From: Flaccisagitta enflata | Lineage: Eukaryota | Length of the DNA stretch: 64,000 bases | NCBI GenBank assembly: GCA_965153355.1 | Contig: OZ231126.1 | Location: forward strand, 44,702,001 to 44,766,000 | Direction of reading: 5' to 3' | Part shown: positions 28,400-31,300 of the stretch, one piece after another | Layout of the letters: every line of letters starts with the position of its first letter | How positions within the stretch are numbered: position 1 is the first letter of the stretch | Position numbers and translations under genes: made by a program | Notes under the pieces: generated by a model | Told to the model about the DNA's origin: nothing | The model's input: only the letters and a program-made list of their open reading frames with translations | The model's database searches: none

Positions 28400-31300
28400 A
28401 TGGATGAGTCAAATGAGTCCATAATCCAACAACAACAACAACAGCAACAACAACAGCAACAACAACAACAGCAACAACAACAACAGCAACACGACTCTCC
28501 CCTTGATTCCATAATGTGGCCAAGGGAACAACAACAACAACAACAACAACAACAACAACAACAACAACAACAACAACAACAACAATACATTGATTCCATA
28601 ATGTGGCCAAGTGAACAACAACAACAGCAGCAACAACAACAACAACAACAACAACAACAACAACAACAACAACAACAACAACAACAACAACAACAACAAC
28701 AACAGTACAATGATTCCATAATGTGGCCAAGTGAACAACAACAACAACAACAACAACAACAACAACAACAACAACAACAACAACAACAACAACAACAACA
28801 ACAACAACAACACGACTCTCCCCTTGATTCCATAATGTGGCCAAGGGAACAACAACAACAACAACAACAACAACAACAACAACAACAACAACAACAACAA
28901 CAACAACAACAACAACAACAACAACAACAACAACAACAACAACAACAACAACAACAACATTCCATAATGTGGCCAAGGGAACAACAACAACAACAACAAC
29001 AACAACAACAACAACAACAACAACAACAACAACAACAACAACAACAACAACAACAACAACAACAACAACAACAACAACAACAACAACAACAACAACAACA
29101 ACACCGACGACGACGACGACCCAATAAAGATACGAATAAGGCAAAGCAACTAAAAATCCTCTACTGTAACATCCAAGGCATAATGAGCAAAAAGGCAAGC
29201 ATTACGGCTATACTCGAAGATGTCCATCCGGATGTGGTTTTATTCTGCGAAACACATCTAAGTGACAACAAAGGAGTACAAATTGAAGGCTACTCTTACT
29301 TTGGCAAAGCCAGGAAAAATGGCGCCGGAGGAGGGGTAGGCATTTGCGTTAAGAACGACCACAAATGTTATATATCTCCTCACCAATCAGCAACTGATAT
29401 TGAACTGACTTGGGTTAGTGTGGCACGTGGACGTGCAAGGCCCCTGTCCATTGGAGTATATTATGGTTTGCAGGAAAGTGTGTCAAATGATAAAATTGTG
29501 AATGAAATGGATCTGCTTCGAGAAGAAATAAATGACATGAGGCGTGATGGTGAAGTATTTTTGTGCATGGATGCAAATGCTAAAATCGGCCTCATGAATG
29601 AACCAATCTCGAGAAACGGAAAAGCAATAAAGGAAGTATTTGATGAAACGGAAATGTATATTTTGAATGGAAATAGTAAATGTAGCGGTGTTGTAACACG
29701 TGAGAATCGCAATAAACCTGAGGAAAAATCAGCCATCGACTTTGTAACGGCAAGCTATAGCGTATGTGACTGGATTAAAAAGGTTGAGATCGACGAGTCT
29801 GGCGACTTTAGGTTTACAAGTGTTAAAAAAGAAACTGACCATAACACAATTTTAGTTGATATGGAACTACCTAGATTTGAATGTGTTAAACAAGCCAAGC
29901 GTGTAAAATGGAATCTTAGAGCTCCCCCTGAAAAATGGATGCTTTTTCAAGAAAAACTAAGGAATCTCAAAACTGAGGCCCAACTTATCATGGATGATAC
30001 GGGTACCGACATGACAGAGCGTTATAGTAAATGGGAAAAACTACTATACTCAGCTCTTATGCAATCAATTGGGAAAACTACAGTAAAAACAAACTTTAAA
30101 CCAAAAGCAACGGAAGAAATGGTTCAACTGAGAAAAGAGAGAAGAGAACTCAAAAAGAGGTATGAACAAGAGACAGACTACGATACTAAACCTTTAGCAT
30201 TGCAAGAATATAGATCTAAGCAGATGGAAATCAAAGAAAGAGCAGAGATAGAAGAAACTGAACGAGTTGAATCACGCTTTCAAAAGATGATGAAAGAGGG
30301 TCCAAATGGAATGTGGAAAGAAATGAAACAAATGAAGGCAGACAGAACTGACGAATGGTGTGTGATGAAGAATGAGGATGGAAAAAGATGTTTTGACCCT
30401 GATGGAAATAAGAAAATTGCAGAGCGCCATTATACAAGCTTGTATGGTAACCATCCTACATGCTACCATGACTACCATGAATATGTCAAAAATAGAATAC
30501 CAGTTCTAGAAGAAGAAACGTTTGACGACAGAGACATTGATCGCGTTCCTACCAAAAAAGAGGTTGAAGAGGTAATTAAGAATAAGAAAAACAACAAAGC
30601 AACCACCGACTGGGATAACGAAATTTTAAAAAAAGGAGGAGAGCCTATGGTAGACTTTATCATGCCTGTAATTCGAGCTTTTTGGAGGGAAGGAGTATCA
30701 CCAAAACAATGGAATGAAGGATTGATTACCAATGTTTTTAAGGGGAAAGGGGATCGTGAAAAAATGGGGAATTATAGGGGCATTACTGTCTCAAGTTCAA
30801 TTGGAACCATAGTGGAGGAGATACTGACCAAAAGATTGATGCAAAAGGTCCAATTCAGCCAAGCGCAGGCAGGAGGAAAGAAAGGTGGTAATGCAATAGA
30901 CCACATATTTATCCTTAAAAGTCTTATCTCCACGGCACTAAAGAAAAGGGAGGCCCTCATCATAACTTTCTTTGACATAAAGAAGGCATATGACAGAGCA
31001 GACATGAGTGATATGCTCTGTATAGTAAACGAGCAGGGTTTTAATGGCAAAGCTTGGAAACTTACCAAATCACTAAACGAAAATTTAACTGCCAGAGTTA
31101 AGACCAAAGCAGGTCTCACTGATGAGATCAAAAGGGAAAAAGGAGGAAAACAGGGAGGTAAGCTTATGGTACCATTATTCTCAAAGATGATGGATACTCT
31201 TCCGGAGGAAATGCATGCAGATAATTCACTAGGAGTTAGTCATGGAAACAATACCATTGCGAGTCTTGCGTTTGTTGACGATGTTGCAAGCATCGCCGTT

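Follow-up and report, generated by a model that had tools for sequence, protein, structure and literature searches.

The second open reading frame (ORF2) of an apparently intact LINE, a non-LTR retrotransposon located in the 64-kb stretch of DNA analysed here (the window), places 250 codons ahead of its first apurinic-like endonuclease (APE) motif, and 171 of these codons specify glutamine. We consider this array to be probably a young compound micro/minisatellite that has inflated an already long, coding and Gln-rich ORF2 leader of an esterase-ORF1 LINE residing in a repeat-prone genome.

A two-ORF LINE with an esterase-like ORF1

Judged by its reading frames and motifs, the element (Table 1) appears intact, with a putative coiled-coil-like region and a putative SGNH-like esterase in ORF1 and an APE and a reverse transcriptase (RT) in ORF2. 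Together the two ORFs comprise about 2000 codons without interruption; that both are open is compatible with recent activity, for which ORF2 would have had to be translated through or past the array. Self-BLAST found one copy of the element within the window, the only further matches being those of the array with itself and with an unrelated CAA array at 44177–44743.

Behind its N-terminal region, ORF1 has an acidic (GAY)n stretch (26996–27073), a coiled-coil-like middle part and a putative SGNH/GDSL-like esterase, whose ADSNG, TGINDL and NDVHY motifs we take to be the SGNH blocks carrying Ser, Asn and His. Its score against Pfam GDSL_2 was 32.8 bits, 0.1 bit short of the cutoff of 32.9, while the putative coiled coil upstream of the esterase corresponds to a sub-threshold match to HMMR_N, a family rich in coiled coils (residues 349–423; score 24.4 bits, cutoff 30.1). 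A phmmer search of ORF1 against PDB chains, the ZfL2-1 esterase among them, returned no match at E ≤ 0.01. Relatives of ORF1, of which 163 were found, align from query residue 101 through the final residue; nine of the ten that were retrieved reach the C-terminus, and all nine stop at the same conserved C-terminal motif. As the best 150 of the 163 are moreover all at most 863 aa long, a fixed ORF1–ORF2 fusion was rejected. A possible homology between the C-terminal helix of ORF1 and the motif found in the ORF2 leaders of relatives (see below) was also rejected, since by eye the two agree at about 3 of 13 positions.

For ORF2, alignment of residues 14–801 with residues 5–778 of human L1 ORF2p (E 4.5e-17) and the PF14529/PF03372 domains of its relatives point to an N-terminal apurinic-like endonuclease domain, on which Pfam Exo_endo_phos matched weakly (18.2–18.6 bits against a cutoff of 24.5). 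The Asn of the first APE motif is presumably catalytic. The RVT_1 match, spanning residues 550–792 as counted on a protein starting at 29105, likewise argues for the RT domain of an APE-type LINE, and this region aligns with human L1 and R2 RT chains.

The same two-ORF plan is described for LINEs with an esterase-type (type IV) ORF1 in the CR1/L2 groups, such as zebrafish ZfL2-1 (PMC3905857, PMC4120745). The likeness covers APE and RT in ORF2, a short simple-repeat 3' tail and, in ORF1, the putative SGNH-like esterase placed behind a candidate coiled coil, whereas ORF1 of the window is much longer (631 aa) and lacks a PDB match at the threshold given above. Human LINE-1 resembles the element in its APE–RT order and in an ORF2 that follows a long ORF1 after a short spacer, but this spacer is given as 63 nt in L1 (PMC4091050), compared to one in-frame TGA plus 18 nt to the first AUG in the window.

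Table 1. Features of the element and further CAA/TTG arrays in the window (window coordinates).
Feature	Position	Strand	Basis or remark
Full-length two-ORF LINE (non-LTR retrotransposon)	26150–32784	+	5' boundary approximate; 3' end fixed by (AAATC)5
ORF1, 631 aa	26486–28381	+	ORF list, profile match, relatives; TGA stop 28379–28381
Putative esterase motif ADSNG	27770–27784	+	ORF1 sequence
Putative esterase motif TGINDL	27908–27925	+	ORF1 sequence
Putative esterase motif NDVHY	28160–28174	+	ORF1 sequence
ORF2 open frame, 1360 codons stop to stop	28382–32464	+	ORF list; in the frame of ORF1; stop 32462–32464
Leader head MDESNESII	28400–28426	+	sequence; end part GAGTCCATAAT like spacer core (by eye)
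Compound CAA micro/minisatellite, six Gln tracts and five spacers	28427–29101	+	sequence, TRF
Gln tract 1, 21 Q	28427–28489	+	
Spacer 1, 39 nt, HDSPLDSIMWPRE	28490–28528	+	
Gln tract 2, 19 Q	28529–28585	+	
Spacer 2, 30 nt, YIDSIMWPSE	28586–28615	+	
Gln tract 3, 30 Q	28616–28705	+	
Spacer 3, 30 nt, YNDSIMWPSE	28706–28735	+	
Gln tract 4, 25 Q	28736–28810	+	
Spacer 4, 39 nt, HDSPLDSIMWPRE	28811–28849	+	same peptide as spacer 1
Gln tract 5, 36 Q	28850–28957	+	
Spacer 5, 24 nt, HSIMWPRE	28958–28981	+	
Gln tract 6, 40 Q	28982–29101	+	
His and basic patch HRRRRRPNKDTNKAKQ	29102–29149	+	sequence, relatives; place matches pre-APE basic patch of relatives
First APE motif LKILYCNIQG	29150–29179	+	sequence; Asn aligns with Asn14 position of human L1 ORF2p
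Reverse-transcriptase domain	30752–31480	+	Pfam RVT_1, E 4.1e-19, 69.5 bits against cutoff 29.6
FVDD of RT domain	31271–31282	+	sequence
C-terminal Cys2-His-Cys motif CLDCDMLDDEAHRINDC	32255–32305	+	sequence; also in relatives' fragments P0326 and P0339
3' tail (AAATC)5	32760–32784	+	sequence
CAA/TTG array	11834–11926		TRF
CAA/TTG array	14199–14501		TRF
CAA/TTG array	44080–44759		TRF
CAA/TTG array	52446–52549		TRF
CAA/TTG array	55041–55433		TRF

Anatomy of the poly-glutamine leader

The original prediction of about 170 Gln in six CAA tracts, separated by five conserved spacers in an intact frame, was borne out by the count of 171 (164 CAA and 7 CAG codons) in a frame that is open throughout, and the other two forward frames of the array indeed give poly-Thr or poly-Asn or run into stops. 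TRF reports 28427–29103 as one single impure period-3 CAA array. Along it, the spacer units follow in the order A, B, B', A, C, and all five spacers have the exact 18-mer TTCCATAATGTGGCCAAG in common, which occurs five times in the window against 0 expected (100 shuffles). Derivation of the spacer from the APE start region was rejected, as the likeness (CATAATG and CCAAGG in both) is too short to mean anything. The junction to the endonuclease reads (Q)40-HRRRRR-PNKDTN-KAKQ-LKILY, the five Arg of the basic patch being encoded by a (CGA)5 repeat at 29105–29120.

Sequencing runs X1, X2 and the poly-A run X19 (about 6% of that run) were compared with the element over 26100–28847. X1 contigs, beginning at 26152 near the approximate 5' boundary of the element, are single unbranched pieces identical to the window over 26564–28390 (0 differences); X1 has just one further version, which is 93% alike and contains an extra nucleotide at 28260. 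The single version present in X2 shows 26 differences over 1127 nt. The contigs of the two runs hold two to three sequence versions of the element, contig depth not being equivalent to copy number. In the sampled part of X19, no reads fell on the leader head or on ORF1 outside the (GAY)n patch; all 84 placed reads lie on this patch (about 26928–27111) and continue unlike the element.

Long near-pure trinucleotide tracts are prone to assembly error, and as the short-read contigs of X1 and X2 end at 28390, nothing independent spans the array. Mis-assembled tract lengths or unit numbers are nonetheless very improbable as an explanation for the array, considering its specific unit order and CAG interruptions, the frame that stays intact over 675 nt and the similar look of other long arrays in the window.

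Repeat background and frame retention

CAA makes up 96% of the Gln codons in the tracts (164:7) compared to 71% (49:20) elsewhere in ORF1 and ORF2. Four of the six tracts are pure CAA, while the CAGs of tract 1 recur with a regular period; the mixture of CAA and CAG codons by which a selected poly-Gln or prion-like domain would be recognised is not found at this CAA share. The surroundings are rich in repeats as well, with 85 TRF rows for the window and five other CAA/TTG arrays of 93–680 nt (Table 1). Interruptions in these non-coding CAA arrays are multiples of 3 in 22 of 32 cases and out of frame in the other 10; the arrays contain TAA and TAG codons, and among the 3-nt interruptions of the largest array CAG is the most frequent. 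In the ORF2 leader, nine of nine interruptions are in frame and stop codons are absent. The chance of finding all of them in frame is 0.69^9, or about 0.035, if the nine are independent, and about 0.1–0.16 for five to six independent events, and only about two spacer indels (9 and 15 nt) are informative and independent. These odds hint weakly at constraint, or else at a very recent origin of the array. The intact frame in itself is weak evidence of function, because CAA slippage and in-register exchange between tracts preserve the frame automatically.

A long coding leader in related LINEs

The protein database holds no member of the element's own family, the best full-length match being 53% and the best fragment 70% identical. 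A FastTree phylogeny of 84 rows, comprising the window and 83 of the 93 protein-database matches (≥ 1000 aa), placed ORF2 in a clade of seven rows with an SH-like support of 100 (FastTree only). All five clade relatives with a recognisable first APE motif have leaders of 65–112 aa, counted from start codons that are automatic gene calls; the call for the sixth relative, P0005, starts at a Met inside the motif. Across all relatives, the motif is recognisable in 61 of 143, with a median leader of 25 aa, and outside the clade only P0076 (69 aa) has a leader of more than 49 aa among these 61. A long coding leader at the 5' end of ORF2 therefore appears to be a trait of the clade. The premise that ORF2p of APE-type LINEs starts within a few residues of the APE domain holds for human L1, where the alignment begins at residue 5 (opposite ORF2 residue 14) and which therefore has almost no leader compared to the 250 codons in the window, but fails for the clade to which the element belongs.

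Three lineages of this clade (P0002, P0003/P0310 and P0011/P0325), 53–54% identical to the ORF2 of the window, have leaders of 98–116 aa in the order Q-rich stretch, P-rich or Q/K-rich stretch, Q-run, His/basic patch and KAK-x-LKILY. They share with the window the Q-run directly before the His/basic patch and the KAK-x-LKILY junction, but hold 18–42 Q instead of 171, interspersed with other residues and Pro-rich stretches and devoid of repeated spacer units. P0001 and P0008, also clade members, have long leaders with 6 Q each, so that a Gln-rich leader is not a feature of every member. Although the leaders diverge faster than the body of the protein (53% against 82% identity between P0002 and P0325, 39% against 75% between P0002 and P0310), their reading frame is kept open; they are built from unremarkable mixed-codon sequence and share an N-terminal motif, I-R/Q-x-L-x-x-F/V-I-E. 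The leader of the window has no recognisable counterpart of this motif, and common descent of its 5' part with theirs would accordingly be conjecture.

The few sequence versions in the X1 and X2 contigs, which look like few copies, the 0 RNA reads on the leader head or on ORF1 beyond the (GAY)n patch in about 6% of the poly-A run, and the SSR-rich neighbourhood would suit a silent low-copy relic, in which the array grew in place as a genomic microsatellite and was never part of a transposing RNA. However, contig depth does not give a copy number, the uninterrupted codons of ORF1 and ORF2 mark the copy as young, and the Q-run found at exactly this junction in related lineages predates it, so we assign post-insertion decay a small probability.

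We see selection of the array as a prion-like or coiled-coil module, serving ORF2p self-association or recruitment into ORF1p/RNA particles, as rather unlikely. In its favour, in-frame Q/P-rich leaders persist in the three related lineages and the array is free of stops and frameshifts. Precedent for Q-rich additions to LINE ORF2 proteins comes from some Drosophila telomeric LINEs, for which a Gln-rich 'X domain' of about 400 aa is described (PMC13534243); this is a long Gln-rich addition like the window's leader, but it is C-terminal, is treated as a domain rather than as a codon-pure repeat and belongs to a different LINE group. Against selection of such a domain, the near-pure CAA tracts point to very recent slippage and not to maintenance, the leaders of P0001 and P0008 are not Q-rich, leaders diverge much faster than the body, and X19 gave no sign of expression in the fraction sampled.

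Start codons and translation of ORF2

ORF2 has in-frame ATGs at 28400, 28514, 28601, 28721, 28835, 28967 and 29183, the first of them 18 nt past the ORF1 TGA; ATGs at 28378 and 28381 overlap the ORF1 stop region in another frame. The original prediction had the Met positions right, with LKILYCNIQG upstream of the Met at 29183 and 40 Gln following the Met at 28967. Because the next Met at 29183 lies past the motif, an AUG-initiated ORF2p with a complete first APE motif, including its Asn, has to start at 28967 or upstream and carries at least Q40, as had been claimed. The argument that an AUG start cannot skip the array presupposes AUG initiation, though, and is weakened by this assumption: translation of human L1 ORF2p is described as independent of its own AUG (PMC4091050, citing Alisch 2006). 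In the stretch that separates tract 6 from the APE motif, the frame contains the near-cognate codons ACG at 29132 and AAG at 29138 and 29144.

The ATG retained in frame by each of the five spacers stands in the context ataATGt, position −3 being a purine, and the only out-of-frame ATG ORFs between 28400 and 29183 are three of 3–6 codons. The leader RNA is furthermore predicted to be the least structured part of the element, with an MFE of −58.8 kcal/mol (768 nt) compared to −118 to −183 kcal/mol for six segments of the same length, and a termination-reinitiation mode has been shown or suggested for SART1 and L1 (PMC5972666). These points would favour an RNA-level runway, on which 40S subunits moving past the ORF1 stop restart at any of six in-frame AUGs and thereby generate ORF2p isoforms ranging from Q171 to Q40. 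We nevertheless hold this to be quite unlikely, as the low structure follows automatically from a composition of 55% A and 30% C, the spacer AUGs are copies of one duplicated unit and not independent events, and the leaders of relatives are mixed-codon sequences with an N-terminal peptide motif instead of CAA runways. In X19, the compared element region is without reads outside the low-complexity patch, and with the first AUG so close to the ORF1 stop, a ladder of restart sites is not needed. Synthetic (CAA)n leaders are used as unstructured 5' UTRs (PMC12415969) and share the repeat unit and the very low predicted structure with the window array; as described there, they are non-coding laboratory constructs, whereas the repeat in the window lies in the ORF2 frame of a natural element.

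Origin and meaning of the array

Reading the array as microsatellite growth within an older leader, we propose that the ancestral leader would have started just past the ORF1 stop and consisted of a low-complexity Q/P-rich stretch, a final short Q-run and a His/basic patch, followed by the APE domain. CAA slippage would then have lengthened the Q-runs, and unequal exchange between CAA tracts, which pair in register only, may have duplicated the 'spacer + tract' unit five times. With this mechanism, frame retention is largely built in and requires little selection. If ribosomes reinitiate close to the ORF1 stop, as they do in other bicistronic LINEs, a start at the first AUG, 18 nt further on, would yield an ORF2p bearing the array as a disordered N-terminal tail in front of the basic patch and the endonuclease. 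We judge that the array would be tolerated by the element and not needed by it.

A more far-reaching scenario, which we mention only tentatively and deem unlikely, is that a marine clade of esterase-ORF1 LINEs has made a disordered Q/P-rich ORF2p extension a working part, either holding ORF2p in the ORF1p/RNA particle or setting the frequency of restart, and that the element of the window builds this extension from 'AUG-bearing spacer + (CAA)n' units, producing graded isoforms of Q40–Q171 from one RNA.

The literature on non-LTR retrotransposon ORF2 and polyglutamine, covered by title and start of abstract, contained no LINE-encoded poly-Gln; for poly-Gln or Gln-rich LINE ORF2, only the telomeric X domain turned up (PMC13534243). 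The available text on esterase-ORF1 LINEs (PMC3905857, PMC4120745) and the other papers covered describe no long Q-rich coding ORF2 leader. Of 44 pattern matches to the APE protein in metagenomes none was confirmed, and the spacer pattern matched nothing in the metagenome, viral and genome contigs scanned.

If the array is only a passenger, it represents a clean natural case of an ORF2 5' end stretched by microsatellite growth with the frame unbroken. It also cautions against reading much into a frame that survives a repeat, since trinucleotide arrays preserve it almost automatically. What is likely to last longer is the finding at clade level, namely the coding leaders of 65–116 aa between ORF1 stop and endonuclease, with a conserved basic junction and, in the relatives but not in the window, a conserved N-terminal peptide motif. 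Should leader or array prove functional, they would provide a handle on the poorly understood translation and delivery of ORF2 in non-L1 LINEs. Mouse L1, too, tolerates a tandem repeat within its coding frame, the 'length polymorphism region', whose copy number varies; unlike the array described here, it is situated in ORF1 instead of ORF2 and is not a microsatellite.

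Results and Discussion

The poly-Gln array is genuine and strikingly large. It sits within a complete two-ORF non-LTR retrotransposon that spans roughly 26150–32784 on the + strand. In ORF2, RVT_1 was detected downstream of the array (E 4.1e-19), while residues 5–778 of human L1 ORF2p align with residues 14–801 of a protein starting at 29105 (E 4.5e-17). The Cys2-His-Cys motif near the ORF2 C-terminus is also kept in two fragments of relatives, P0326 and P0339.

Features of the element and selected repeats in the window
Feature	Positions	Strand	Remarks
20–21-nt unit arrays	10858–11065, 36393–36700, 37107–37239, 45845–46166, 59924–60351, 60660–60771		both orientations; consensus such as GCCTCGAGGCTGGGATTTGG or GAGGGCAGATTTCAGGCCTGA
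Other CAA/TTG arrays (n=5)	11834–11926, 14199–14501, 44080–44759, 52446–52549, 55041–55433		93–680 nt; TRF
TATA-like sequence	about 26146		TATATATAG; close to presumed 5' end of element
(TC)n microsatellites	26400–26442, 32505–32535		5' UTR, just before ORF1 ATG; 3' UTR
ORF1	ATG 26486 to TGA 28379–28381	+	631 aa
Acidic (GAY)n stretch in ORF1	26996–27073	+	DDDNDEEDDDEEDDDSDDNEEDSEDD; GAY/GAR repeats
ORF2 open frame	28382–32464	+	
First APE motif	29150–29179	+	LKILYCNIQG
Cys2-His-Cys motif	32255–32305	+	CLDCDMLDDEAHRINDC
Element 3' end	32760–32784	+	(AAATC)5

ORF1 carries a putative SGNH/GDSL-like esterase that scores 32.8 bits with Pfam GDSL_2 (cutoff 32.9) and shows the motifs ADSNG, TGINDL and NDVHY. 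In the middle part before it, a coiled-coil-rich family matches below threshold. For ORF1, phmmer against PDB chains gave no match at E ≤ 0.01. It would fit the esterase-type (type IV) ORF1 of CR1/L2-group LINEs such as ZfL2-1, as portrayed in passages of PMC3905857 and PMC4120745. The stop-to-stop frame opens at 26186, and alignments of relatives begin only at query residue 101. In the closest ORF1 relative, P0144, a poly-Asp stretch is even longer than the acidic stretch found here. At the extreme C-terminus (28300–28378) a conserved hydrophobic motif follows a variable Pro/His/Gln-rich linker, reading ALRN-L/I-FNMAL-x-x-LP-x-x-stop in the closest relatives and L-x-x-F-x-N/M-A-x-x-C-L more widely (compared in P0144, P0146, P0148–P0150, P0153–P0155, P0158 and P0159); to our knowledge this motif has not been described.

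The anatomy of the array is as the original prediction had described it, from the Gln tracts and spacers to the in-frame ATGs and the position of the APE motif. Six tracts of 21, 19, 30, 25, 36 and 40 codons amount to 171 Gln (164 CAA and 7 CAG), separated by five spacers of 39, 30, 30, 39 and 24 nt, each containing the exact 18-mer TTCCATAATGTGGCCAAG (five matches found, none expected from shuffles). Spacer 4 repeats spacer 1 exactly, and a single base separates spacers 2 and 3; by reading, removing 15 nt from spacer 1 yields spacer 5, and removing 9 nt and making two substitutions yields spacers 2 and 3. The array is therefore built from one "spacer + (CAA)n" unit duplicated in tandem. In-frame ATGs stand at 28400, 28514, 28601, 28721, 28835, 28967 and 29183. 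Initiation at 29183 would leave out the Asn of the first APE motif, which aligns with Asn14 of L1 ORF2p and which we take to be catalytic.

ORF2 continues in the frame of ORF1 with a single TGA between them, and its first AUG (cacATGg) follows 18 nt past this stop. Two out-of-frame ATGs (AATGATGG) overlap the stop and open a 9-codon mini-ORF, whose TGA (28405–28407) falls within the first ORF2 codons. Stop read-through and stop-start coupling are both conceivable. A fixed ORF1-ORF2 fusion was rejected: the best 150 of 163 ORF1 relatives are all at most 863 aa long, and 9 of 10 retrieved relatives reach the C-terminus, all ending at the conserved C-terminal motif; the ORF1 stop is therefore ancestral. 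According to passages of PMC4091050, translation of human L1 ORF2p is AUG-independent and requires a completed upstream ORF, and a passage of PMC5972666 describes termination-reinitiation in SART1 and puts it forward for L1. The claim that an AUG start cannot skip the array is thus only conditional: it holds in that the 29183 start loses the aligned Asn, but it presupposes an AUG start that human L1 does not need (PMC4091050). Between array and APE motif lie an in-frame ACG (29132) and two AAG codons (29138, 29144). As RNA, the leader is predicted to fold more weakly than any other part of the element, at −58.8 kcal/mol, while six control segments range from −118 to −183. This weak structure follows from base composition. 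CAA repeats are, in a passage of PMC12415969, a standard way to remove RNA structure. That the leader would serve as an RNA runway with a ladder of AUGs is unsupported, and we regard it as very unlikely.

The part most deserving follow-up is the long leader found clade-wide. Protein collections yielded no member of the same family, the best full-length match being 53 % and the best fragment 70 % identical. A regular expression located the first APE motif inside the called protein in 61 of 143 relatives, with a median leader of 25 aa; in the remaining 82 the gene call begins at a Met within or beyond the motif, which makes them uninformative on leader length. Ten relatives have leaders above 49 aa, five of which (three 90 % clusters) are Q/P-rich and 94–113 aa long. 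In a FastTree phylogeny of ORF2 with 83 database matches of at least 1000 aa (10 shorter rows dropped), the element falls into a 7-row clade (SH-like 100) with P0001, P0008, P0003, P0005, P0002 and P0011. All five clade relatives having the APE motif carry leaders of 65–112 aa, and P0076, at 69 aa, is the sole relative beyond this clade whose leader is longer than 49 aa; a further relative, P0325, lengthens the leader of the P0011 family to 116 aa. The expectation that ORF2p starts within a few residues of the APE domain is correct for human L1 and wrong for this clade.

A motif I-R/Q-x-L-x-x-F/V-I-E at the N-terminus of the leader is conserved across the lineages of the relatives, and the ORF start MPPKSQ of P0338 resembles WLPKSH immediately after the ORF1 stop. 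In Q-rich lineages a Q-rich part is followed by a P-rich or Q/K-rich part, a Q-run, a His/basic patch and KAK-x-LKILY; the junction in the window reads (Q)40-HRRRRR-PNKDTN-KAKQ-LKILY. Leaders diverge more quickly than bodies with the frame still open, as seen for P0002 against P0325 (53 % identity in the leader, 82 % in the body) and P0310 (39 % and 75 %). An extended coding leader in which a Q-run stands at exactly this junction is therefore older than the copy in the window.

Simple repeats are extremely abundant in this genome, as seen from 85 TRF rows in 64 kb, and arrays of this kind form in it readily. CAA makes up 96 % of Gln codons in the ORF2 tracts versus 71 % elsewhere in both ORFs (49 to 20), four of six tracts consist of CAA alone, and in tract 1 the CAGs are spaced periodically. 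The five Arg of the basic patch are encoded by a perfect (CGA)5 repeat (29105–29120) directly abutting the array, at a position where relatives have a mixed His/Lys/Arg patch. The other CAA/TTG arrays, CAA purity, periodic CAGs and the (CGA)5 neighbour are marks of recent slippage rather than of a long-maintained domain. A selected poly-Gln module is quite unlikely. As the best-supported reading, we consider it probable that microsatellite and minisatellite growth enlarged a clade-typical, already Q-rich ORF2 coding leader and that the outcome is tolerated as a disordered N-terminal tail. Searches of main article texts turned up no account of a LINE whose ORF2 begins with a poly-Gln leader; the nearest precedent, in the passages found, is the Gln-rich X domain of Drosophila telomeric elements, which is C-terminal there.

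The intact frame through the array is only weakly a sign of selection. CAA slippage alters length by 3 nt and tracts in unequal exchange can pair in register only, so that the frame information rests on about two spacer indels (9 and 15 nt). Among the non-coding CAA arrays of the window, 22 of 32 interruptions are multiples of 3 and 10 are out of frame, CAG being the most frequent 3-nt interruption in the largest array; TAA and TAG codons are present there and absent from the leader, where nine of nine interruptions are in frame. By our own arithmetic this corresponds to 0.69^9, about 0.035, for nine independent interruptions and to about 0.1–0.16 for 5–6 independent events. Youth explains the in-frame leader as well as constraint does. 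Growth of the array in place in a silent relic is unlikely, and mis-assembly of the array is extremely improbable in our estimate.

Single contigs of sequencing run X1 (same organism label) cover 26564–28390 with no difference from the window, and its second version is a single piece, 93 % alike, in which 1 nt inserted at 28260 frameshifts the ORF1 tail. The only version in run X2 differs by 26 substitutions over 1127 nt and lacks 12 nt, in frame, at 26831 in ORF1. Contigs of both runs all end at 28390 with repeats skipped, which confines the comparison to sequence outside the array. The (GAY)n stretch had very high depth in all four runs, one of them from RNA and another a marine metagenome, and unrelated sequences are evidently its source. 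In the poly-A RNA run, of which about 6 % (12.2 million records) was read, all 84 reads lay on this patch and continued unlike the element. Contigs and RNA reads together suggest few element copies and no strong expression in the RNA sample, contig depth being no copy number. Scans of metagenome, viral and prokaryote contigs gave no match.

Elsewhere in the window, the 20–21-nt arrays look like one dispersed satellite or MITE-like family. An 81-nt unit (x5.0, 98 % identity) occupies 14605–15008, immediately after a (TGT)101 array. The stretches 18188–18521 and 20715–21061 are alike in layout, a (GAGA)n array followed by a 39-nt unit (x1.9) with identical TRF consensus at 18446–18521 and 20986–21061, and probably represent a local segmental duplication with about 2.5 kb spacing.
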